Shown here piece after piece: positions 20,987 through 43,388 of a stretch of DNA of 64,000 bases. Every line of letters starts with the position of its first letter. The first letter of the stretch is position 1. The stretch is taken from the NCBI GenBank assembly GCA_010093745.1, contig MU005969.1:246334-310333 (forward strand), written 5' to 3'. The DNA is from Piedraia hortae CBS 480.64. Taxonomy: Eukaryota. The notes under the pieces are model-generated. The model made no database searches and had not been told where the DNA came from. It saw only the letters and a program-made list of their open reading frames with translations. The position numbers and the translations under genes are program-made.

Positions 20987-23900
20987 TTAACGGAAAGTGA
21001 TTGTAGGCAACTTAAAATAAGCAGATGTCGTTGACGTCGAAGTCGCCGTAGTGCTGGAAGACTTCGAGACCGTCGACGTAGTGAGCGTTGATACACCGCC
21101 GCCGAGCGTAAGAATGTTGCTTTGCGTTGTGCTTGCAGTCGTCGACCTTCCGAGGGTAACGCCGATAATGGCCACAGATGATAGGGGTGTGTAATTGATT
21201 GACGGGATGACGTTTGGCGCCAAGACATATGGGATCCCGACGTATGGCGTGCAAATGACCAGTGGCGTAAAGTCGATGCTCAGGCCACCAATGTTTACAC
21301 CTTGTTGATCCAGACGGAGGGTGACAGTGGTTCCCAAAACCGAGAGCGAGCCTCCAACGGGAATAACGCCGACCAAGGCACCGTTGACTGTCACTTCGAA
21401 CCGCTCTGTGGCCGTGTTGTAGTATGTCATCAATATGTTGCCTGCGATGTTGAGGGCCATGCCGTACGTAGCCTCTGTTGTCTGGCATGCTGATGTGTCG
21501 ACTGTGGCCGTTGACGTTTGCGTCGTGGTCGTTGGGCTTTGGGAACTGCTGCTCGACGAAGGCTTGCTCGTAAGCGTAACCGTTGATGTCACCGTTATGG
21601 TGCTGTTTGCGGGTGCCGTCGTCTGAGCAGTGGAAGTGATGGTAGTTATCGTAGTAGTGTTGGTCGACGGCGTAGACGAACTAGTCGTGTTGATGCTCGC
21701 CGCCGTGGTTGTAGAAGTAGCCAAAGTCGTTGTCACTGTCACCGTAGTATTGTTGGACACCAAGGACGTCGTCGGCTCTATAGTAGAGGTAGCCACAGTC
21801 GTCGTCACCGTCGTGGTTTCGGGTGCTGGCTCTGTCGGATATCCCGCTAGTTCAACAGTGGAGGTAGCTACAGTCGTCGTCACCGTTGCGGTAACAGGCA
21901 CGGGTTCTGTCGAAGACGCCGTCGACTCCATGGAGCTGGAAGAAGTGGTGCTGTTGGTCCACGGCGGGGTTGCGGTCGAGCTGCTCGCCGTCGACGTTGC
22001 ACTCTCTGCCGCGGAGCTAGAAGTCGGCTCAACTGGTGTAGAGCTCACGGGAGTCGTCGAGTTGCTTGCCGCGCTGGATGTGGTTGAGCTCTCCACCGAC
22101 GACGTGGTGCTCTCAGCGGTGCTGGCCGACTCTGTTGGAGATGTTGTGCTTTCGATGGTGGAGCTGGTTGTCGGCGCCTCTGTAGAGCTTTCCAAAGTGG
22201 TGCTGTTGGTCCACGGTGCACTTGCAGATGCTGACGCGCTTCCAGCAAACGACGTGGTGCTCTCGCTAGTGGTACTGTCACTTAAGCTCTCACTCGTTGA
22301 TTCACTCGTCATGGGTGCTTCAGTCGTGCTGTTGGTTAATGGCGCACCCAACGAACTCTCGGAGGTGTTCTCCGTCGATGTGGCAGGAGCAGTCGTCAAA
22401 GGGACAGCCGAAGAACTCTCCGTAGAGGACTCAGTAGAGCTAGCCAAAGTGCTGTTGGATGGGACAGTCGTCAACACTGTATTATCCGTCGTGGATGTCG
22501 CTGTGGTTGCAGAGCTGTTGGTGAAGCGCACGCTCGATGTGTCAGAGCTGATGGATGGCACACCGCTGGTGGGCGCACTGCTAGACGACACGGTGGGACT
22601 GTCTGTTGAGGAGTTGGTAAACGGTGCAGTCGAAATGTCGGAGCTTGATGACGGTGCGGCGCTTGTTAATGCACTGCTGGAGGACTCAATCGAACTAGAT
22701 GAAGTGCTGTTGGTGGGTGCACTGGATGACTCCGTTGAGCTCATAGAAGAGGAAGTCGTCTCGGGAGCAGTGGTAAGAGGTACAGTTGATGTGCTATCTG
22801 CGGTCGAGCTGGCTGTTGTGGAATTGGTGAATGGTGCGCTTGAGACCTCAGAGCTTGAGGCACTGCTAGTCGAAGCCGAAGACGTCGTGTTAACAGCTGA
22901 TGAGCTGCTAGCAGATCCCGTGGAGCTGGCAGCAGTTGGAGAATCAATTGTCGTACCAGCATCAGTGCTGGAAACCGTGGTACTATTGACCCATGGTGCA
23001 CTGGAGCCTGTCGAGCTGGACGAATCTACAAAGCCTGTCGACGCCAAAGTAGGGGTAGTAACACTGCTGGAACTTCCAACGATAGAGTCAGTAGCATTGG
23101 CAAGGACGCTGCTCTCAGCTGAGGTTGTGGCAGCAGTCTCCGTGGCATTGGTCGGAACATTGCTGGAGCTTGTAGCAGTCTCGGTTACATTTGCGGGAGT
23201 GCTACTGGAGATGGTTTCCGTGGAGCTGGCACTGCTAGAAGCCTCGGTCGTGGCAGACGAAGTGGTGTTGGTAGCTGGCGAGCTGCTGGTCGAACTGCTA
23301 GAGCTGGCAGCAGTTGGAAAGTCGGTTGTTGTTCCCGCGCCAGTGCTCAATGAGTTGGTCCCGTTCGCCCACGATGAACTGGAGCTGCTTGTGGTGGTAG
23401 GATAGTCAGAATAGCCGAGGAAGTCCGTCGTCGTTCCCGCGCCTGTGCTAAATGGACCTGTCTCGTTCGTCCATGACGCACTGGAGCTGGGTAAGCTTAT
23501 AGTGGCTGCACCGCCCGTTGATGCGCTCGGCCTGGCTACAGAAGAGCTCTCGGTCGTGACAGAGGCGGTTGTGTTGGAAGTGGTACTGCTAGAACTGCCA
23601 GTCGTCACAGACGACGTGGCGTTGGCAGGGACGCTACTTGAAGCAGTCTCAGTAGAGCTTGCGGTGGTCGGATCAGTCGCGTTGCCAGAGGAGCTGACGG
23701 AGCTTTCAACCGTTGCGGAAGCAGTGGTGTTTGCAAGAGCACCGCCAGAGCTAGTAGATGCAGGTTCAGTACCATTTCCGGGGGCACTGCTCGAGCTGAC
23801 TACAGCCGAGCTCGTACCTGTGGCCGATGCAGTGGTATTGGCAGTAGGGCTTCCAGCGGGCCGGGTGCTTGTATTGGACGAGGAATCGGTGGAACTGGCT

Positions 23901-26900
23901 GCAGTTGACCCTCCAGTAGTGTTAAGTAGGGTGGTGCTGTTGGCCCAGGGCTGGTTTGAAGACTCGGTCGATCCTACACTTGAGGTGGTTGAATCAGAAC
24001 TAGGAGCACCCGAAGATGTGCATGTTGGACACGGCGAGGAAGTGGTCGTATTAGCCATGACCGAGCTATTTGAAGATGCACCGGAAGTCGTAGTGACTGC
24101 GTTAGAACTGGAAGTGGAACATGTTGGGCACAAAGATGGACTGGTCGTATTGGTCATGACCGAGCTGCTTGAAGCCGTAGCCGCTGCATCAGAAGCCGAA
24201 GCGTTTGAAGATGGGAAATCCGTGCACGTGGGACAGAGCGAAGAAGTGGTGGCGTTAGTCCAAGCTGAGCTGCTTGCAGGCACAGTGGAGGAAAGCGTGG
24301 TGGAGCTGTCTGATGGGGTACCACTGGAGACTATAGTGGCATTAGAAGGTGCTGAAGTGCTTCCTTGAGAGCTGGACGTAGAGCCACTGGCTGGCACATC
24401 GACAGGAGTCGTCGTGTTGACCAGTACAGAGCTACTTGCAGTACCACTTGACGAAGAAGCAGCAGTATTTGTCGGAACTGAGCTGTTTGCTGAAGCACTC
24501 GTAGAGCTCATGGCAGAGCTATCTATTGGTGAACTGCTTGAAAAGGTAGAATTAACCGGGGTAGAACTGCTTGCTGAGCCACTGGATAAAGTCGTGACCG
24601 AGCTCTTTACTGGTGCACTGCTTGAGGATGTGGTGACATTGGACGGAGCCGAACCGCTTCCAGGCGTGCTGGATGAAGAGCCGCCAGTTGGCACAACACT
24701 CGTGGCAAAACTACCGGTCGGAACGCTAGAGGCCGTGGCAGTGCCACCTATGACGGAGTCGCTGCTAGAAGAAGTAGTCACTTTGCCAGCAAGGCCGCTG
24801 GGAGAGCAAACTCCCGAGGGACTGGGCGTATATGTGACACTAGTGACAGTGCCATTTTTGGTGATCGTAGTAGGCTTGCATTGGGCCGTGGCTGTGCAAT
24901 TGAATGGCGAGCAAGGCGATATAGGGCCAACGGGAATCTCGAGCAAAGCAGCCGAGTCAATATCCTTGGTGGTGGAAACACCATTGCCGGCGCTGTTCTT
25001 AAGGTAGCAAACGCCCTCGGTGTAAGTGAAGGCAACGCAACCAGGCTTGGCATCGCATGCGGCAAAGCAGTCGGAGAATGATGGCGCAGGAATGTTCGAG
25101 ATATCACTGCCAAAGTAATCAACATGGCACTGGATCTGATAAGTGTGGCCCAGTGCATCAGTGTAAGTAGCGTTCAAAGATGCGAGCTCATCACACGATC
25201 CAGTGGCAAGAGGTCCAGTTGTTGATGACGTGGACGAAGACATTGGGCTTCCGCTTGTCACACCTGAAGCAGATCCAGAGCTTGATGCAGTCGAGGAAGT
25301 GTTGAATAAAGAGCCTGACTGCGAAGATCCTGTAGAGCCACCAGATATTGATGCAGCAGATTGAGACTGTCCAGTTGCCGATACATTCCATGAAGACCCA
25401 ATGAGCGATGAGCCAGTAGGTGACACATGTGATGATGAGGCTCCAGATCCCGAAGCTCCCGTGGCAGAGACGTTCGAAACTTTTGGCCCACTGGACGAGG
25501 CACCCGAAGATGACGGTCCAGAAGCAGAAGGCTCACTGTTTGAAGGAGCACTATCTGTCCCTGCTGTTCCGATGCTTGAGGACCCTGTTGTAATAGTGCT
25601 CAATGTGGTAGGGCTAGAGGCTGACGGTGCATTGGTGCCAGAGGAAGAAGGCACCAGAACCGCAACGTCAACACCTTTGTCGCTGGCAGATCCATTACTG
25701 AGAGTATCTTTCAAGTAGCAGTAGCCCTCGTAGAAGGAGAACCCGATGCAGTTGGGTGTAGCATCACAGGCCTTGAAGCATCCGGCATACGACTGAGCCG
25801 GGACAACACTAATGTCACCCCCAAAATAGTCGTAGCTGCACTTGATCTGGTATGTACGGCCTTGGGCATCCGTGAACGTCCCACCACTTGCTGCAAGCGA
25901 AGAGCATGACCCAGCTGATGAGGAGCTAGATGGCATCGATGTGCTTGAGGTTTCGATCGCAGAAGACCCAGCAGACGACGTGCCAGATGTAGCAGGGCTT
26001 GTGGATCCTGAGGCTGAAGCACCAGAAGATAAAGAACCAGTGGCTGAAGCTTCGGACAAGAGTGATCCTGTTGAAGTGCTTGAAGGTTTAGTCGATGGAG
26101 TACCTAACGATGAAGATACAGATGAAGCATCCGAAGATCCGGTGGACGATGCATCTGCTGAAGAAGCACTCGAGGATGAAGACTCTGTGGACACAGCTTC
26201 TGAAGAGGGAGATTTAGCCGACGAGGAACCCAATGAAGCAGATATAGTCGATGAGGCTTCTGATGAAGCAGGTCCAGAGCTCAAAGATACGGTCGAAAAG
26301 GAGCCAACAGTCGCAGAATCTTTGCCAGATGTGTTCGAAGTGCTGGATGATGACGGCACCAGAACAGCGACGTCAACACCTTTGTCGCTGGGAGACCCGT
26401 CATTGAGGATATCTTTCAGGTAGCAGTAGCCCTCGTAGAAGGAGAACCCGATGCAGTTGGGTGTAGCATCACAGGCCTTGAAGCATCCAGCGTATGATTG
26501 AGCTGGAACAACGCTAATGTCGCCTCCAAAATAGTCGTAGCTGCACTTGATCTGGTATGTGCGACCTTGGGCATCCGTGAACGTCCCACCGCTCGCTGCA
26601 AGCGAGGAACATGACCCAGCTGATGAGGAGCTAGAGGGTGTTGGTGTGCTTGGCGAGCTATCTGTGCCTGAAGATTCGATGGAAGACCCTCCAGAGACCG
26701 TAGAGCCTGATGACGATGCGGATCCAGGTGTACCTGAAGACGGACCGAAACTTGAAGAGCCTGAGGTTGAAGTTTCTGTCAATGAGGCACTAGAAGTAGT
26801 CCCAGATGATTCATCACTAGCAGTTGCCGTTCCAGAACTTGACATTCCCGACAAGGAAGCTCCAGAAGGCGCTGTGCTTGAAGTAGAAGTATCAGATGGA

Positions 26901-29900
26901 GGTATACTTTGGGTAGATGAGGTGGAAGGCACCAAAACAGCAACATCCACGCCCTTGTCGTTGGCAGATCCATTATTGAGAGTATCTTTCAAGTAGCAGT
27001 AGCCCTCGTAGAAGGAGAACCCGATGCAGTTGGGTGTAGCATCACAGGCCTTGAAGCATCCAGCGTATGATTGAGCTGGAACAACGCTAATGTCACCCCC
27101 AAAATAGTCGTAGCTGCACTTGATCTGGTATGTACGACCTTGGGCATCCGTGAATGTCCCACCGCTTGCTGCAAGCGAAGAGCATGACCCAGCTGATGAG
27201 GAGCTGGATGGCGTTGGAGAGTTTGATGAGGTTCCGGTAGCTGAAGATCCCGCGGAGAGAGAGCCAGGTGTACCTGAAGCTGGTTGGCTTGTGGTAGAGG
27301 CACTAGACGACAATGACCCAGTGCTTAAGGCACCAGAGGAACCAGTGGAAGAAGTGCCAGAAGTAGACAACATGGAGGTGGAAGAGTCCAACGTCGAAGC
27401 TCCCCTTGATGATGGGGCACTTGAAGGAGCCAATGAGGATTCATCACTGGCAGTTGCCGTTCCAGAACTTGACCTTTCCGAGGAAGAAGCTCCAGAAGTG
27501 GCTGTGCTCGAAGTAGAAGTGCCGAATGAGGGCTGACCTGTTGTTGTCGAGGATGGTACCAAGACAGCAACATCGACACCATTGTTGTTGGGAGATCCAT
27601 TGTTGAGAGTGTCTTTAAGGTAGCAGTATCCCTCGTAGAAGGAAAATCCAATGCAGTTAGATGTAGCATCACAGGCCTTGAAGCAGCCGGCGAATGATTT
27701 CGCTGGAACAACACCAATATCACCTCCAAAGTAGTCGTAACTGCACTTGATTTGATACGTGCGGCCTTGAGCATCTGTGAAGGTGCCACCGTTTGCTGCA
27801 AGCGAGGAACATAACCCAGCTGATGAGGAACTAGATGGTTTTGGCGTGCTTGAGCTTTCGATCGTAGAAGATCCCGTGGACAAGGTGCCAGTTGATGGGG
27901 ATCCTGACGATGCGGTTGACTCTAATGAAGATGCTACTGAAGGTCCAGAGCTTGGAGCACCTGAGATTGAAGGGTCAGTGGCTGATGGTCCTGCTGTTGA
28001 ACCGGCAGATGAAGTTCCCGTAGTAGATGATTCAGTGCTCGGGAATGAAGCGCCAGTTGTTGAAGTTCCCGAGGGTGAAGGTCCGGTACCGGATGAATCC
28101 AAAGACGAAGCTCCAGTGGCTGAGACAATAGGCGAGGATCCTGAGGAAGAAGCGCTCGATGATGAAGCGCCACCGGAGGAGACATCAGAGGGCGACTTAT
28201 CCAAAGTAGGGGCTCCTGACGAAGCAGGTCCAGAAGATGCATCAGCAGTCGTTGCCGATTTAGAGCTTGAAGCTCCCGAGGTTGCAGTGCTCAGAGGAGA
28301 CACATCAGATGACGACGGATTCTGCATGCCCGAAGAAGGGACCAGAACAGCAACATCGACAGATTTGTCAGTGGGCGATCCATTGTTGAGGACATCCTTC
28401 AAATAGCAGATGCCTGCCGAGTAAGAGAAACCAGCACAGCGAGGCGTGGCGTCACACGCATCGAAGCAGCCGGCATAGGACGAAGATGGAACAGTGCTAA
28501 TGTCTCCCCCGAAATAATCGTAGCTGCACTTGATCTGGTAGGTATTGCCGTGAGAGTCAGTGAAGGTATCACCCTTTGCGGCAAGTGAGGAGCACGAGGA
28601 ACTTGATGCAGGCCCAGATGGCAACGATGTGACTGAAGAGGTGTCAGATGGTGTAGAGTCTGCTGACGATGATGTCTGCGTATTGTACGCTCCTGACGTG
28701 CCAGAGGTTGGATGGCCAGAAGATTGCACAGAATCAGAAGATGAGCCAGTGGATAGAGCGCTGAATGAGGGAGTTCCGGCATGCGAAAGACTCGAACCCC
28801 ATGAGGAAGCGTCTGAAGAGACCCCAGTAGACGAGGCACCAGAAGACGGTCCCTCGGGCGAAGCTCCAGAGTTATCCCCAGCGGTGGCGGATGCTGCTAC
28901 CGAAACATCTGACGGAAAGAATCGAGAAGTAACAGTTGCAAAGGTAGAAGCACCAGAGGGAGATTGTCCATTGGTGTTTGAGGACGTGGGAACCAGCACA
29001 GCGACATCAACGCCCTGCTTGTTTGGTGTTCCGTTCCTGAGGGTGTCCTTCAGATAGCAGTAGCCTGCAGAGTAGGAGAAACCGACACAGAGAGGTGTAG
29101 CATCACAGGCTTCAAAGCAGGCTGTGTAGTTTGGCGAAGGGACGACGCCGATGTCGCCTCCATAGTAGTCGTAGCCGCAAATGACCTGGTAAGTGCGACC
29201 CTGCTCATCGGTAAAAGTGTCACTCTGGTTTGCCAGCGAGGAGCATGTCGAAGAGTCAGGAGACTCTAGGAGCGGCGAAGTGCTCACCAAAACCGCAACA
29301 TCAACGCCATCCTCATTCGTCGATCCATTCTTGAGAATGTCCTTCAGGTAACAATAGCCGTCTGCATATGCAAAGCCAATGCATCGAGGCTTAGCATCAC
29401 AGGCTGCAAAACAGCTTGCATAAGAAGGTGCCGGGATGCGGGCAATGTCGCCTCCGTAGTAGTCATATTCGCACTTCAGTTGGTATGTATAGCCTTTCTC
29501 GTCCGTGAAATTTCCATTCTCGTTTGCGAGGATAGAGCAAGAGTGGGTTGATACAGTATCCGGTGGTGACACTCCAGTGGACGACTTTGATATGCTTGGC
29601 GCAGACGTCCCAGACAAAGATGTCTCTGAGATTGTCGAGCCAGTAGACATTGAAGCGGAACATCCAGAGGCTGAGCTGCCAGATGCAGAACTATTCGATT
29701 CACAATTCGACGATACGCCGGAAGTACCGGATTCGGAGCCACTGGGGATGCTCTGCGAAGCGCTGGCCACCGAGGTATTCGATGATCCAGCTGATGGAGA
29801 GTCTGAGAAACCAGTAGTTGAACGATCGGAAGATCTAGACGAAGATCCAGACGCAGACCTATCTGAAGGACTTTGCGAGGCATATCCGGATACTGAACCA

Positions 29901-30695
29901 GAAGATCCAATATAGGAGGCATTGGACATGGACGTGCCCGATGAGGAGCCAGTTGCGGAAATAGTAGTGATTGATGCTGAGCTGCCGGAGGTGCCTGTGG
30001 TGACAGAGTCAGGTGCTGAAGTGCCAGACGCGGAAGAGCCTGTAAAACCACTGGCCCCAGACGTGGTAGAAGAGACGGAGCTGTCCGTCGAAGAGGCACT
30101 TGATGAGCCAGAAGAGACCCCAGCAGATGATTTCGAAGCGGAAGGAGATCCAGGTGGGCTAGCCGAAATCACACTTTGCAAGGCCGCAGCGTCGACGCCT
30201 TTGGTGGTTGGTGCGCCTCCCACTGCAGCATTCTTCAGATAGCAAATGCCCTCGGAGAATCTGCATCTGGGTTAGATTCAACGCCGGATCAAAACTGCTC
30301 CCTACTTACGCGAATGCAACACATCCAGGGGTGGCATCACAAGCATCAAAACACCCTTCCATCCTATGAGACCGAGCTGTCCCGATGTCCTCTCCATAGT
30401 AGTCGTAACCACAGTCGACGACATAAGTTTGTCCTTGTGCATCAGTGTAAGGAAGGTGTGATGGCGAGCTGGGATCGCAGCAAAGGCCGGACTGAGCTTG
30501 AGCGACTGGAGATGGTGGTGAGGCGGAGGAGGGCGATGAGGACGAAGAAACTTGGGCCTGGCGCTGCAACTTTGTTTCAGTCTCGATTCACGCCCATGGA
30601 AGACTACTTACTCTCACATTGCGGTACCAGGGCGAGGCATCTGCAACAGTACACAGTGCTGCCAGGCTCACGAGAGCCTTCAATGATCGGGACAT
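20987..30695 (-). CDS. Giant (~3,200 aa) secreted Ser/Thr-rich protein with nine Cys-rich PAN/Apple-like modules (introns ~30570-30611 and 30261-30309)
   Basis: ATG 30695 gives the signal peptide MSRSLKALVSLAALCTVADA. Two short GTAAGT introns join it to the 3078-aa ORF, and the second splice rebuilds a complete module (CVAFA-FSEGICYLK). The module consensus is C..(F/Y)TD.qG.TYqi.C.yDY(f/y)GgDI......sy..CF.ACDA.p.C.gF.y..G.CYLK....G....gvDvAvL. Confidence 0.85.
25650..27840 (-). repeat. Four near-identical ~280-bp coding repeats (Cys modules 5-8 of the giant protein)
   Basis: The string gtagcagtagccctcgtagaaggagaacccgatgcagttgggtgtagcatcacaggccttgaagcatc recurs at about 25714, 26420 and 26993, with a close variant at about 27620. 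Confidence 0.9.
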
Positions 30696-35680: not shown

Positions 35681-36088
35681 ATGCCAGGCATCATCAGACC
35701 CCGTCAGACGACCATTATCTACTCCCCAATAGCCACAACTGTGTCCACGCAGACGGCTCAGCAACCGCAGCAGCCCGTCTACCCGGCTCGCCATGTGTCT
35801 ACCGGAATCGGACTTTGGTGGATTGCCATTCCAATCATTCTCCTTACTCTGCTTGGATTGTTTCTATGTTGCTGTCTTTCAGCAATGAGCAGGCGTGGCA
35901 GGGGACGGCGTGGCCGAGGGAGAAGGGGCAGGAAGACTTACCATCAAAATGGATGGTACGGTCGCAGAAGACGTCCGTCATCATACACAACGACCACAAC
36001 TTCGACATCTCGAGCCAGCAGATCGCGATCCAGGGGCCACGTAGGAGCCCGAAGCCGGTCTCGGAGAAGCCATGTTGTCGTCGTCTAG
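35681..36088 (+). CDS. Putative 135-aa single-pass membrane protein with a CCC motif and an Arg/Ser-rich tail
   Basis: The ATG is in accATG context. One strong hydrophobic segment (IGLWWIAIPIILLTLLGLFL) is followed by CCC and a basic tail. The ORF fits exactly in the gap between the flanking genes. Confidence 0.6.
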   Translation: MPGIIRPRQTTIIYSPIATTVSTQTAQQPQQPVYPARHVSTGIGLWWIAIPIILLTLLGLFLCCCLSAMSRRGRGRRGRGRRGRKTYHQNGWYGRRRRPSSYTTTTTSTSRASRSRSRGHVGARSRSRRSHVVVV

Positions 36089-37415: not shown

Positions 37416-40184
37416 TTAACACTCCCTCCCTTGCCCCGTCACAGGATAAATCAGTCCCCTCACTTCCTGTGGCCGAAGCGGCCAGGCTGCCTCTTTCCAT
37501 CGTTCCGTTTTAGTGCTAGCTTGATTCCATACAACCTTTGTCAGTTCCTTGCCAAGGAACTCCATCGTTGGCGTTACGATGGGAAGGAGTGCGAAGAGCG
37601 TGACATATGACACCAAGGCTGTGACTCCAGTTACAGCGGTGAAGCTCCATTTCAAGGTTGCCAAACGCAGGAAGACGGAACTGCCAACCGTCCAGAAAAC
37701 CCCGCCGTGAATGAGGTAGATTGTAAAGACGTGCGGGAAGAACCAGAGCAGCAGCCTTGAGCCAAGAACATATTGCGTCCACGTAGAGTTCTCTGCAAGG
37801 AACTGTGCCGCAATGGCGAAAGTAAGGCCGTTTAGCTTCGGCTCCGTGTAGTCTGGGTACCTTGCGCCCGAAGGCTTGGCGAATTGATAGTCGGGATGCA
37901 CGCCACGCTCGACAGAGGAGAAGTTGTAGCCCGTGTGAATAGATATCAGGTCATTAGCGAGCGAGAGAAACGTGACCACCAATGCGACTGTGATGAGTGG
38001 GTAGTGCAGCCACCAGCGCGACTGCGTGTACGATCGATAGTGGTACGTAATGTCAAGGTCTGCGAGCAGGAGGCCTGCCCAGAAGTAGGATGTCCATGAA
38101 AGTGCGTACCACCCATTTGCGATGCAGAACATGTAGTAGCTCATCCGCTTCCACGGTGTCCGTATCTCTCCAACCACAATGGCGCCAAGGAGAACTGTCC
38201 ACGTATTTTGCAACTGCACCGGTATGGTCCAAAGAACACCCGTGCAAAAGTGCTTGGTGACTTGTGGCGCACCGTTTGGGATGAGAAAGAGAAGTTGCAG
38301 TGTCTCGTTGAGGAACCAGCCGAAGTTGGGAAACACACTGACATTCGGCCACGGCGACCAGGTCAGAGAAGGGAGGTACTCAAGTGCGTTTGCAGCGCCC
38401 ACATCTAGTAGGAAATATTCAAATAGGATCACAACCGCGATTGGGATGATAAGCCTTGGGGCGCGACAGACGGTTTTCTCGGCAATGACTTGCAAGTCTG
38501 CACTGCGGAGGTAAGAGCTGGTTAGAAATCTTGTAGAGGTTGTGAAGAACAGGCCTACGAATATAGGGTTGAAGACAAATGGTTCGATGGTCTTTCGTGC
38601 AGCCATCTCGGATGAATAATGGTGAGGCAAATATTCCATAATAACCCCAGGGACAAAGGTGAGCATGAAGTGTTCGCAGGAGACTAGGAGGGAACAAATG
38701 GCCACCAGACCAGCGAGGTAGTCGATTCTCGTTCGTGCTACAGCCTCTGTTGCAGGTGGAGCTTTTGCGCCGGGATTCGCAGCCGCGATCGACCCTTCGG
38801 TCAACTTGGCTTCTGAACTGGAAGCCTCTGGCCCGCCGACGGATAGGTTCATCTCAACTTTGTCCGGCTGAGAAATTGAATCCACGCTGGAGCTCATTCC
38901 GTGGTGGACAGTCGATGTCATGGTCAGAGTGTTGCTCATGGTCGAGTTCCTATTGTCAAGCAGAGGCTGGTAGCTCGTTCCCGAACTGCGCTTGTCTCGA
39001 CCAACCGTCGATGCGGATGCGGCCGGATTGCTGACCGAAAGATCGTCCATTTCCAAGTTGCTGCGAGGACCAACAGGTGCTGGTTGACTCTCTGTGGATT
39101 TCCGACGCACTTTGTGTAAGAGCGTATACGCGATGAGTGCTGCTGCTATCGCCGACGTTGCAACCATAGCAATAATGGCCGGAAGTTTAGACCTATGGTC
39201 GACCGACTGTGGTGGCGTCCATGGCAATGTGGCCGAAGCAGTGTAGTCCGTCGACTGCCTTAGAGTCATGTCCGAAGTGAGACAGAACTGGCTTGCATTA
39301 CAGGAGTTCGAATTGATTTGTGAGAGACTGTGCCCAGAAGAATTGAAAAACAGTCTCACCCAGCCGATGGAAGCAGCGCTTGCATTTTGCGGTGGGCCTT
39401 GCATGAAGTTGGCATCACCATTGGACCAATGCTTGAGGTAAAAAGCTGAAGGCACATGGACCAGCGATGCATTAGTCGTCGGAACCTTGCGAGTAGTCAT
39501 GTTGCCAATGGCCCAAGTAATGCTCTCCCTATCCCACTGCATACTATACTCCCAAAAGTCCCATGGCGAAGAGTTGTACGGTCTCTCAAAGAGTTCCGTG
39601 TAGTTCTTTCCCCAAGCCGGGACAGGGGTTTGTCTCTTGGTAGAGGTCTGCATACAGGCATTGTTGGTGGAATCGTCCATGTTCAGCAGATCCAACTCGG
39701 CTGATGCGGATTCGTTGTATTCCAAGCGCATCGTCAAAGCACTTCCACCCGCATATGGCGCCGGGCTGCGCATGAAGACCTTGAAATGGTCATACTGAAT
39801 GTCTTGCCTCACGCTTCTAAGCTGGGCTCCAGTAACCACCTGCTGCGGTGTAACGCCAGAGACGTTGAGGTTCAGCCACTGCGGCTTCAGGTTCCAGACT
39901 TCACTCTCGTTAAAGTAGACGTTCTTCTGGGACGCAGCTTCTCGATGGTAAACCGTCCATCCCTTCTCGTACACGTGTTCAAACTCGTCTACGGTGAAAA
40001 CATCGGGGGGAACCCTCGATGTCTCGTTGAAGTAGACGAGGATTGAGTCTGTGAACACGGCCCGTGTCTCCGGATCGAAATAACCGCATCTACAGTCCTC
40101 CGTTTGTCCGTCTCCCATCCCACTTTGCGCGAGGACTTTGCAACCAAGAAGGGAAAGCAGTGCCCTGCGCCAGTAAAAGCCCAT
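37416..40184 (-). CDS. Fusion protein: signal peptide + GH16-like beta-jelly-roll domain + TM helix + acyltransferase-3 (AT3) multi-TM domain
   Basis: 922 aa. GH16-like hallmarks are DCRCGY, GAQLRSVRQDIQY, ELDLL, FWEYSMQW and LKHWSNGD..MQGPP...WVRLFFNSS. These are followed by a TM (LPAIIAMVATSAIAAALIAYTLL) and an AT3-like region (RIDYLAGLVAI...EHF, CRAPRLIIP, GVLWTIPVQ, FTIYLIHG). Confidence 0.75.
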   Translation of the reverse strand: MGFYWRRALLSLLGCKVLAQSGMGDGQTEDCRCGYFDPETRAVFTDSILVYFNETSRVPPDVFTVDEFEHVYEKGWTVYHREAASQKNVYFNESEVWNLKPQWLNLNVSGVTPQQVVTGAQLRSVRQDIQYDHFKVFMRSPAPYAGGSALTMRLEYNESASAELDLLNMDDSTNNACMQTSTKRQTPVPAWGKNYTELFERPYNSSPWDFWEYSMQWDRESITWAIGNMTTRKVPTTNASLVHVPSAFYLKHWSNGDANFMQGPPQNASAASIGWVRLFFNSSGHSLSQINSNSCNASQFCLTSDMTLRQSTDYTASATLPWTPPQSVDHRSKLPAIIAMVATSAIAAALIAYTLLHKVRRKSTESQPAPVGPRSNLEMDDLSVSNPAASASTVGRDKRSSGTSYQPLLDNRNSTMSNTLTMTSTVHHGMSSSVDSISQPDKVEMNLSVGGPEASSSEAKLTEGSIAAANPGAKAPPATEAVARTRIDYLAGLVAICSLLVSCEHFMLTFVPGVIMEYLPHHYSSEMAARKTIEPFVFNPIFVGLFFTTSTRFLTSSYLRSADLQVIAEKTVCRAPRLIIPIAVVILFEYFLLDVGAANALEYLPSLTWSPWPNVSVFPNFGWFLNETLQLLFLIPNGAPQVTKHFCTGVLWTIPVQLQNTWTVLLGAIVVGEIRTPWKRMSYYMFCIANGWYALSWTSYFWAGLLLADLDITYHYRSYTQSRWWLHYPLITVALVVTFLSLANDLISIHTGYNFSSVERGVHPDYQFAKPSGARYPDYTEPKLNGLTFAIAAQFLAENSTWTQYVLGSRLLLWFFPHVFTIYLIHGGVFWTVGSSVFLRLATLKWSFTAVTGVTALVSYVTLFALLPIVTPTMEFLGKELTKVVWNQASTKTERWKEAAWPLRPQEVRGLIYPVTGQGREC

Positions 40185-40498
40185 GTTGCCTTATGGAATG
40201 CTACGTAAGGAGACCCAAGCAACGCCTCTGGAATGCATTGCGTAATAGGAGAAACTGCGACACGTGCTGAACTTGGATCGCCATGGAAAGGCTGGATCTG
40301 AATTTATCGGGTCGACGCCACGAGAAGGGCAACCGTCAAGTTCCCCCGCATGTCTAAACCGCCACACCTATTGCCCCGCACTAATGCGAGGAGGTGCGTG
40401 ATTGACAGAACGAGCCTAATCTATGCACGACACGCGGCATTATGCATGACACGCCCTATTGATAGATGCAACTACTGCATCTAGTCTATGTCATAAGC

Positions 40499-41856
40499 CT
40501 AGCTGACCAAGGCAAGCTGCGCAAACACATCTGCCGCAGCCTGCAGCAGCATTAGCCATGGTAAGGCTATCAAAAACAACACTCCAGCCCAGAGTGGAAC
40601 GGCTTCGGATCGCACGCGGTACGTCATTACGGCTGTGCAGATCATGGAAACAAGTCTGTTACTGTAAGCCCGTATCCAACTCGACAGCAGATCCCAACTC
40701 ACCCTATCACAATGAACCATTTTGTGGCTGCAGCAGGCCAGTGAATCATGTGTGTGAAACTCGCTAACGAAGTTGGTGCATGCACAATCAGCATGCAGAG
40801 AGCCATGCAGAAGAATTGCAAGACTGCGTGCGCCGTAATCTGGAGAAGCATAAGCATGTAGAGGATTCCGATGCGTGATTTAATTGGCCGTCTTTTGGAG
40901 AATACCAATTTCGTATATCTCAGCGAGGCGAGAGTTGCTTGTTGAGCGTCGTAAATCATAGCAGATCCAAGGGAGCCCCATGACAAGGCGCAGCGGCTGA
41001 AAGATATTATACTCAAGTCCCAGATCGCGTTAATGTGCTCAGAAACAGGAGTCCAGCTTAGGTCCTTCCCGATAGCCGCTTTACGAAGTGCCTCCGTCTT
41101 CCAGTACGCATTCGTCCCGTAGGGTACCTTTACGTTCCAAGTCAGAGTTCTGCCAGGAAGCAAGAGGGCGTGCATCATGTCCTGCCGTAGTATAGATAGC
41201 AGACTGACGACCGACGTCCGCCCTGGTGACGTGAGCAAGCTTCTGCCCTGTATCATGTCCAGGTTCTCGTTTTGTAGCATTCTCTGACCTGCGAGACGTG
41301 GAGCATATGGATGCGGTAGCTGATCGCCTGCAAAAACAGCTGTTATTTGGCAATCTGACGCAGGCACATTCTGGTTTAAACAAAAGGCCACTCGTTCGGG
41401 CACTTCTTGCGCTGTACACGTCAAGTATGTTGTGCGTCCACCAGCGGTAAAGTCGCCGGACTGGCACAGAGATGTGATGAACAACCTGTCAAAGGGGTAA
41501 TCGATGCTCTTAGCAACGTTCTGAGCAAAGCTTGCATTATTTGTGTCAAATATCAGATGCATCGAGGGCAAACAATTGTCCTTTGCAGCCTCACGCGCTG
41601 ATTCGGCGACGTTATTCAATGATTTTCGAGCGTCGTTTATCAAAGTATTGCCATCGTAGGCTTCGAACGCCATGCACGCGGTAACCAGAGTGGATATTGT
41701 TAGGTAGACGAACCAGACCACTCTCAGCGCTTGTTGATTGCATATCGAGTAGAGTGTTATGGAAAAAACAAGATATAGTAGAAGCAAAATTGCTGGTACC
41801 CAGTGGTGTCTCCTCTCGCCTGAAGAGACCGTTGACGGCATTGCAGAAGTTGACAT
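40499..41856 (-). CDS. GT2-like multi-pass membrane protein with degenerate catalytic motifs (intron 40656-40702; ~436 aa)
   Basis: Two N-terminal TMs, then LPSMHLIF, SIDYP, ITAVFAGDQLPHPY, DMIQGR and GTNAYWKTEAL, which follow the order of processive GT2 motifs. Several C-terminal TMs follow, and a GTGAGT...CTTAC...CAG intron joins the last exon. Confidence 0.6.
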
Positions 41857-42032
41857 GCCGAACTTCAGGAATTAACGAGATGCGCCAGGGATCTCGAAAT
41901 TAGTAACATATTTGCGCTCTGATTACGCCACGATGGTTGTTGCAGGGAAGCGCTCTACGGTTCAGCTTGCATAAACGGCCTAACCGCTTTTGGCTTTCGT
42001 GATATCTCGCTGCCAAACTGTGGGCTCGGTAG

Positions 42033-43388
42033 ATGGGTACCGAGAAGCAGTTACCGCGATTGCTCGCTCCGATTGTTCCCTCAGCTGCCACGAAATTAAG
42101 TCCCCATGATGCGTCCCAAGATTACCTCCTCGGTGTGCGAGGATGCCTTGCCATCATGGGCTGGTTGTGGATGTTCTTGCAAACATTCGCACCTGCCGCC
42201 GTGGCACATTCATACAACACCACTGGTCCCGAACATCAGCTGGTCTTGCGCAAGTCTCTTTCAGTCTTATTCTGGAACGATTCGTTGATCTACTCGTCCA
42301 TCATCTTCTTGTCGGCCCGAACGATCAGTCTGCCTTTTCTGCTCAATTCGACCAGACTCAGGCTGGCAAGCTCCGTCCTTCGACGTGGAATCAGACTATG
42401 GATCCCAACCGCCATGGCCCTCATCATTTGTTACGCCATTTTTTCCAAAACTTTGGGGACGGAATATATGAACGCGTTTTCGGCCCAGACGCAGAACGAA
42501 TCCATGACAAAGGACCTTTATATGCTGCCAAACTCGCTCGCCAATTTTAACAGCATATTTGACATATTCTGGGTTCCACATGATTTTCGTATCAAGCCGG
42601 CAGCTGGGCTTTTCCAACACAGACGCTGTGGGTTGTCAGCGTCATCTTCCAGCAGTCTTACACCGTGTTCATGGCCGTGGCTATCATCCCGTATACGCGG
42701 AACAGCTGGCGTCTTAAAGGGGCACTCGTGTTCATCCTCGCTGCCTGGTGGGTTTACTCCTGGGCCTGGTTTTCCGTGACTGGGTTGCTATTTGCGGATC
42801 TGGTGGTTAATTACAACTTCAAAGCTATTGCGCAAATGCATCGGTTAGAAACGTACGCAGCAGGTGCCACATGTTTGATAGCGGGCTTCACAATGCAGTT
42901 TCTCTGGGTTGCTGCCTGGCCTGAACTGTACACGGCCGAGATCAAATACCACACGGGGGTGTACCAAACGGGTGGCTTATGGCTTTGGAACGATGCAACT
43001 GCGCCACTTTTGCGTGCAGATGACTACCTGGTCATTGTTGGGTTTAATCTGCTGCTAGAATCAACAGATGTGCTGCAACGTATCTTCAGAAGCCGGGCGC
43101 TCGTGTTCATCGGAAAGCGGTCTTTCAGTAAGTTTTTCCGGAGTCTGTGGCCGGTAAGCTTACAGCACAGGCTACTTCCTTTTGCAATCCATTATCGCCT
43201 ACGCGCTTGGCATCAAGCTTGTCATGAACATAATCGGCGGCTCGATGGATACATACGCAAAAGCAAGTGCTGTGGCGTTTATCGTCTGTTTACTGGTCAC
43301 GATTGGGGCAGGGGAGGTGTTTTACTGGGTAATCGATTGGCCTACGCAACGGTTTGCTTGTGTGGTATTTGACTGGATCCGGGAGTAG
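42033..43388 (+). CDS. Acyltransferase-3-like multi-pass membrane protein with a 1-nt frameshift at 42584-42587 (intron 43128-43170)
   Basis: DYLLGVRG, FLSARTI, LRRGIRLWIP, TLWVVSVIFQQSYTV, GLLFADL and FIGKRSFSYFLLQ. Adding one T to the run in gattttcg joins the two ORFs into ~437 aa. Confidence 0.7.

Follow-up and report, generated by a model that had tools for sequence, protein, structure and literature searches.

The question raised by this locus is what three adjoining membrane-protein genes do in a stretch of 64,000 nucleotides from Piedraia hortae CBS 480.64 (GCA_010093745.1, contig MU005969.1, positions 246,334 to 310,333 of the forward strand), hereafter the window. The genes, called A, B and C, lie contiguously between PDX1/SNZ (PF01680, 36210-37112) and SES1 (PF00587, 43429-45018), where an initial annotation had placed them, reading them as a single membrane complex that makes, binds or O-acylates a glucan. 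Gene A (37416..40184, minus strand, 922 aa, no intron needed) fuses a GH16-fold domain to an acyltransferase-3 (AT3/TmAT) domain, gene B (40499..41856, minus strand, 436 aa) encodes a polytopic pseudo-glycosyltransferase of GT2 fold, and gene C (42033..43388, plus strand) encodes a stand-alone AT3-like paralogue of the membrane domain of A. B and C are divergent with exactly the 176 bp between their ATGs (41857..42032) that had been reported, and this layout predicts a common promoter in the gap. The window copy is a partly eroded member of a derived, pseudo-GT2 version of a trio found across fungi. It is considered somewhat probable that the module serves to build a beta-glycan, export it and add O-acyl groups to it, and that the derived lineage keeps its dead GT2 as a partner and takes the glycan from elsewhere.

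Homologues of gene A were found in 286 of the 8000 candidates scored, and the best 120 of the 286, from which the residue counts below were taken, include members of Dothideomycetes, Lecanoromycetes, Leotiomycetes and Eurotiomycetes. Synteny was sampled in at least 50 metagenome loci with A; the upstream sequence reaches 5 kb or more in 27 of them, whereas another 19 are too short to judge. A GT2 gene and a C homologue stand beside A in 24 of the 27 (in two of these the contig ends within C), and these complete loci form 14 groups at <97% identity. The three exceptions (L024, L025 and L050) are partnerless copies of A, all broken, and in four shorter loci the GT2 gene adjoins A. The flanks are unrelated between loci, and no fourth conserved gene was found among the 41 fungal flank open reading frames (ORFs) scanned. 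The identifiers of A and B are consecutive in Teratosphaeria, Polychaeton, Oleoguttula, Meristemomyces, Acrodontium and Elasticomyces. The view of the three genes as one unit is thus borne out in other genomes, and the earlier remark that no characterised fungal pathway holds this gene set still stands, since a literature search that left subscription journals largely outside and did not cover supplementary cluster tables found no description of the trio.

Of the 14 groups, 12 have a GT2 of an intact type, in which a pattern search found YLPNE and QRxRW in 12/12, TED in 11/12 and DxD in 10/12, so that a catalytically intact GT2 travels with the trio in most lineages. In the other two groups and in the window the GT2 is degenerate and inverted relative to the main intact type; the divergent B/C arrangement is specific to this pseudo-GT2 lineage, whereas C and GT2 share a strand in the main intact type. 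Gene B has lost YLPNE, the first DxD Asp (AGDQ stands where DCDH is expected), TED and QxxRW, and the window copy therefore cannot polymerise sugar itself, a departure that the initial annotation missed together with the frameshift in C described below. The loss is shared by 42 degenerate GT2 sequences, which lack YLPNE, the first DxD Asp and QxxRW, the Asp being present in at most one of the 42 against 14 of 15 intact-type sequences. At the TED and QxxRW positions, where the alignment is loose, Glu is seen in 4/42, Asp in 19/42 and Trp in at most 2/42. In a quick tree, 18 of these sequences form a clade with support of 100, nested inside the intact fungal GT2s, and its named members are Capnodiales in the broad sense. 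The ratio of nonsynonymous to synonymous rates (dN/dS) of the pseudo-GT2, measured for one pair, is 0.11, a sign of continuing purifying selection and near the values of A and C for the same loci; with the motif loss across the clade, this argues that B is a retained pseudoenzyme and not debris.

The GT2 assignment of B itself comes from structure and homologues, as Pfam gave no match for the window protein. Its predicted structure (AF2 pLDDT, a per-residue confidence score, 90.8) places a GT-A domain between N- and C-terminal transmembrane (TM) helices and has the GT2 fold (Atlas TM score 0.84), matching hyaluronan synthase 8SNC with a VIA Z of 21.5 (root mean square deviation (rmsd) 3.8, 354 aligned). 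Cellulose synthases are the top Foldseek matches (BcsA, E 2.9e-12). A word-index search with B returned only its own Piedraia hortae record, while HMMER returned 68 homologues. The 47-nt GT..AG intron of B (40656..40702, minus strand) is present in spliced form in a contig of run X2. This run is presumed to be RNA, as its spliced joints fit, although no run recorded as RNA contains the locus, and its contig depth carries no information on co-expression.

Further variants of the cluster were observed in the course of the survey. The tree of A agrees broadly with fungal groupings and shows a second paralogous type; the long branch of its L044 row is an artefact, with an intron as the probable cause. 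L041, L042, L044 and L045, together with P0070 and P0313, represent a second cluster type, in which the order is GT2(-) C(+) A(+). Both A types occur in Coniosporium, and the GT2 that the related genus Zasmidium carries is intact and belongs to the second cluster type. The GT2 family extends to Ustilaginomycotina (Parajaminaea, with degenerate motifs, and Ceraceosorus) and to the chytrid Rhizophlyctis (P0143, P0163, P0170). An MFS transporter gene lies just past the cluster in three groups (L004:804-1790, L008:2736-3359 and L044:2733-3578), those of L008 and L044 being related. Six public models of 1420-1570 aa (P0013, P0028, P0130, P0193, P0305, P0306) join the pseudo-GT2 to the GH16-AT3 protein; they are probably annotation merges, with read-through as the alternative, and were treated as merges because the two genes are separate in the window, in L017 and in the six genera named above. 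One merged model, filed under Quercus suber, is probably from a fungal contaminant.

Gene A begins with a hydrophobic leader at the N terminus, followed by the GH16-fold domain (residues ~30-310), a single TM helix (334-365), a disordered linker (367-485) and the AT3/TmAT domain (486-890). The GH16 domain is the sole Pfam pass among the trio proteins (PF00722, E 3.3e-5, 23.9 bits, cut-off 22); the other domain calls of the initial annotation failed Pfam on the window proteins and stood through homologues and structure. Residues 44-281 form a beta-jelly-roll that matches the GH16 lichenase 3I4I (VIA Z 19.8, rmsd 2.6, 201 aligned). In place of the catalytic ExDxE or ExDxxE the motif reads ELDLLN, and, with the register set from sequence and not from a displayed structural alignment, the acid/base Glu is found in 1/120 homologues in the ExDxE register and in 0/120 in the ExDxxE register. 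As this Glu is absent, the domain is probably not a hydrolase; cleavage by A is unlikely, and the most economical role would be binding. The protein carries 11 N-glycosylation sequons, which fit a location of the GH16 domain outside the cytosol.

The AT3 part of the window protein A has no PF01757 match, yet PF01757 is matched by 9 of 14 A-type AT3 domains of homologues (best E 6e-6). Residues 485-875 match 8JKV (VIA Z 14.9, rmsd 4.7, 290 aligned), and since a chance Z of about 13-14 is possible for helical proteins, the AT3 call also rests on motifs and on these homologues. The 8JKV structure is HGSNAT, placed in the AT3-containing TmAT superfamily in passages of PMC12423673. The domain keeps His505, RxxR (574-577), Gly704, Tyr823 and His826, with R574 and R577 in 120/120 homologues and G704 and Y823 in 116/120 each; helix numbers (TM helix (TMH) 1, 3, 6 and 9) were set by motif. 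It is the most conserved part of A, with a dN/dS of 0.013 over the stretch compared in L032/L037. AT3 proteins are described as requiring an R-x10-H motif in TMH1 (passages of PMC9833829 and PMC12423673). In A the His (His505) is present in 118/120 homologues, and the Arg position is Val, Thr or Leu in 120/120, so that DxxR-x10-H is absent.

Neither piece of C matches Pfam, and the gene was recognised by its homology to the AT3 domain of A (hhalign probability 99.1). In TMH1 of C, 15 of the 16 aligned rows have the Arg, L044 having Lys, and the His is absent, and in TMH9 Gln replaces His in 12/12 last exons read. The R-x10-H motif is thus split, A holding only the His and C only the Arg, while both keep RxxR and an additional invariant TMH2 Arg. 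With the halves divided in this way, neither protein is a textbook AT3. One hypothesis is that A and C complement each other's motif halves.

In the window, C is interrupted by a single frameshift near 42587 (42585..42590, plus strand), where the two pieces abut when aligned with uninterrupted homologues, and its product would be 248 aa, ending at 42779. It is possible, though doubtful, that the window copy is simply a decaying relic, the module working in relatives while selection here is relaxed and A and B follow C. The frameshift is unique among the 17 loci compared, the frame being intact in 16/16 others, and it is present in the contigs of both runs, X1 and X2. A and B are the longest branches of their clades (0.65 and 1.19), and at 13 nearly invariant positions A differs from the consensus. 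The predicted 43-nt intron of C (43128..43170, plus strand), at a position common to homologues, was not found in spliced form in the run X2 contig. A and B nevertheless keep full open frames, B is spliced, and A retains the five AT3 residues listed above. The pieces of C are 53-60% identical to L032/L037, as are the A domains, so the break is recent, and both runs may be of one strain. Two other accounts of the frameshift were rejected: sequencing error, as neither run has an indel there (X1 may be the assembly source, and both may be one strain), and a rescuing intron, for which there is no room and of which run X2 has none.

The preferred reading, an acylating glycan module with a derived branch, can be set out as follows. 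In the ancestral Pezizomycotina module, an O-acylated extracellular beta-glycan would be made within one membrane compartment. The intact GT2, which has the fold and motifs of hyaluronan and poly-N-acetylglucosamine (PNAG) synthases, would polymerise a cytosolic UDP-sugar and thread the chain through the membrane. The GH16-fold domain of A, on the non-cytosolic side, may hold the chain uncut and present it to the AT3 domain, which, aided by C, would transfer an acyl group from cytosolic acyl-CoA to the chain, a chemistry taken from the AT3 family. In the Capnodiales-type lineage the GT2 would have been inverted, lost catalysis and been retained by selection, probably as a membrane partner, and the module would then acylate a glycan made elsewhere. 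In the window genome the module would be eroding further, as the C frameshift and the long branches of A and B suggest. The interpretation in the initial annotation survives in part: it is supported for the conserved unit, in which an intact GT2 mostly takes part, and not for the window copy, with B stripped of its motifs, C frameshifted and a GH16 domain that is probably no hydrolase. The single membrane complex that it proposed, and co-expression of the three genes, are putative.

The nature of the glycan was approached through bacterial relatives of the intact GT2 family, using the best 80 of 558 confirmed loci, mostly from Actinomycetota and Cyanobacteria. An AT3 gene is present in 59 of the 80, nearly always adjoining the GT2, and the co-location of glycosyltransferase and acyltransferase is thus a recurring locus design, as the initial annotation had held. 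GH30 genes are found in 8/80. These have 5NGK as best match (E 1e-59 and 1e-84). The GH30_3 endo-1,6-beta-glucanase BT3312 is characterised by Glu238, Glu339, Asn244 and a Cys393/Cys396 loop (passages of PMC5481569), and the GH30 of L084 keeps all of these; the CxxC loop is seen in 7/8 loci, while Asn244 is kept in the L084 group and not in the L100 group. Four genomes were selected because they have the link; in them 7 of 9 GH30 genes of that kind lie inside the locus, and a fifth genome has one such gene, outside it. For all seven intact fungal and bacterial GT2s scanned in NCBIfam, the closest curated model is PgaC/IcaA, which is a beta-1,6 synthase. The GH30 neighbours and the PgaC/IcaA model point indirectly to a beta-1,6 linkage. 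From the bacterial neighbours only, we infer a glucan product, and a beta-1,6-linked glucan is the leading candidate, though, taken on its own, a tentative one. The full chain of claims is rather unlikely: that the intact GT2 is a processive beta-1,6-glucan synthase common to fungi and actinobacteria, that A and C, with half a motif each, jointly O-acylate the glucan, and that in black-yeast/rock-fungus lineages the synthase became a selected pseudoenzyme.

Two further features of the bacterial loci were observed. Many bacterial GT2s (L053, L054, L082, L085, L093, L095, L096, L100, L108) carry N-terminal receiver and weak GGDEF-like domains, which suggests a signal-gated synthase, and these matched no curated family in NCBIfam. 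In L084 and L103 the GT2-AT3 pair is flanked by GH2 and sugar-binding protein genes and by ROK regulator and GH30 genes, a layout that looks like a make-and-reuse glucan locus.

Several observations weigh against the preferred reading or its beta-1,6 extension. A lacks the TMH1 Arg, a residue reported as essential in OafB and HGSNAT; the closest structures to its GH16 fold are beta-1,3/1,4-glucanases; and the best fold match of B is the mannosyltransferase PcManGT (VIA Z 22.4), tied with hyaluronan synthase. In Paecilomyces, records of A and GT2 were found but are non-adjacent. The bacterial GH30 link is restricted to two actinobacterial lineages, GH30 was not found in the fungal loci or the window, and the L100 GH30 scores 265 against a cut-off of 700 for the BT3312 model in NCBIfam. 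In two cyanobacterial loci a GH42-like gene, instead of GH30, lies behind the AT3-GT2 pair (L077:5858-6976, L123:9923-11086). The seven intact GT2s reach 71-100 bits with the PgaC/IcaA model TIGR03937, whose cut-off is 422, and B has no match to it. Fungal and bacterial neighbour AT3s are not detectably close (hhalign 0.2-2.3%), which leaves their common origin unsupported, and the GT2-AT3 pairing may therefore have arisen twice. Gene A is present in Lasallia pustulata and Lasiodiplodia theobromae, from beta-1,6-glucan-making genera, although gene A is widespread and its presence there is therefore weak support.

An unlikely alternative is that a non-processive GT2 glycosylates a lipid, the AT3s acylate it and the GH16 domain holds the head group, the product being a glycolipid or short oligosaccharide that bears acyl groups. 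The PcManGT match fits such a role, as do weak Glyco_transf_21 matches in some GT2 family members, the count of only 4-5 helices passing a simple hydropathy scan, and the occurrence of several fungal AT3s within natural-product clusters (passages of PMC12423673). Intact members, however, keep the QRxRW and TED of processive synthases, and by sequence the closest PDB entries are cellulose synthases (E 1.5e-19). A polymer is also what the secreted, endo-type GH30 neighbours of the bacterial loci would suit, and the cluster has no conserved lipid, polyketide synthase or transporter gene.

It is quite improbable that the trio of the pseudo-GT2 lineage is non-enzymatic, acting as a wall-glycan sensor or scaffold in which a lectin-like GH16 domain lies outside and a long disordered linker in the cytosol, the two membrane partners being degenerate. 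All three proteins do lack a canonical catalytic residue, and the linker of A comprises about 120 residues of low confidence in the predicted structure. The strong conservation of the AT3 domain of A, in which pore-lining residues are kept, argues otherwise, and the departures in GH16 and AT3 are also present in clusters with an intact GT2. A predicted complex of B with the TM helix and AT3 domain of A, folded without alignments or controls, scored 0.00, a value that speaks neither for nor against binding. It is highly improbable that the product is an amino-sugar polymer like PNAG whose acylation follows the staphylococcal ica locus, even though PgaC/IcaA is the best GT2 model and GT2 plus AT3 is the ica layout, for the scores fall far below the cut-off, a scan of 72 bacterial neighbours and 41 fungal flank ORFs found no deacetylase, and the bacterial neighbours are glucanase-like.

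The trio works like bacterial synthase-plus-modifier loci, yet it falls outside each named family tested. The staphylococcal ica locus pairs the GT2 IcaA with the AT3 IcaC, and the ica/pga systems, whose PgaC/IcaA is the closest curated model, share the processive GT2 beside an AT3; the trio differs in lying far under the family cut-off, in lacking deacetylase and export genes, in being eukaryotic and in having a pair of AT3-like proteins, of which one carries a fused GH16 fold. The BcsA-BcsB-BcsG system comprises a synthase, a TM-anchored carbohydrate-binding partner and a co-located membrane phosphoethanolamine transferase that modifies the chain. The E. coli set resembles the trio in this combination of synthase, modifier and binding partner and in supplying the top Foldseek matches of B, but B is about half as long and without a PilZ-sized extension, the trio has a TmAT protein as its modifier, and A and B are putative binding partners. 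With OafB, OatA and HGSNAT, A shares the fold (8JKV), RxxR, the TMH6 Gly and the TMH9 Tyr, whereas the trio splits R-x10-H and has the invariant TMH2 Arg in both proteins; and unlike AT3/TmAT fusions whose SGNH domain is C-terminal, A carries an N-terminal GH16 fold.

Among fungi, the Aspergillus galactosaminogalactan cluster includes a GT4 and a deacetylase, and CelA/Tft1 and Cps1 are stand-alone GT2s. They are alike in being a fungal synthase and modifier cluster or a stand-alone fungal GT2, but the cluster families are others, and no acyltransferase partner is described. These systems are covered in part by passages of PMC5872309. Kre6 is type II, with its GH16 domain at the C terminus (passages of PMC11620752). 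In Kre6/Skn1, needed for wall beta-1,6-glucan, a luminal GH16 domain anchored in the membrane is likewise linked to the synthesis of glucan, whereas the GH16 domain of A is N-terminal, lacks the acid/base residue and is followed by one TM helix and the AT3 domain, a layout other than type II.

Two other ORFs of the window were recorded. A Ser/Thr-rich ORF of 2980 aa (20987-29929, minus strand, coding on to ~30600) has seven PAN_4 stretches above threshold and suggests a large adhesin or mucin at the surface. A short ORF (35681-36088, plus strand), convergent with PDX1, has one hydrophobic stretch, an Arg/Gly-rich tail and no Pfam match, and an intron just upstream of it is spliced in run X2.

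What gives the locus its interest is less the eroded window copy than the conservation of the cluster and its possible, testable connection with the missing beta-1,6-glucan synthase. A fungal beta-1,6-glucan synthase was still undescribed according to passages of a 2017 review (PMC5872309), passages of a 2023 genome paper note that functional genes for lasiodiplodan are lacking (PMC10219381), and O-acetylated pustulan in Umbilicaria is named in a title cited in PMC7164778. If a beta-1,6 synthase with paired AT3s is indeed at work, it would explain O-acetylated lichen pustulan and exopolysaccharides like lasiodiplodan. The cluster gives three candidate genes for lichens, plant pathogens and black fungi, together with simple bacterial versions. 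A GT2 pseudoenzyme retained across a lineage and a split-motif AT3 pair are each unusual, and whatever the linkage, the module would be a fungal synthase-plus-O-acyltransferase pathway.

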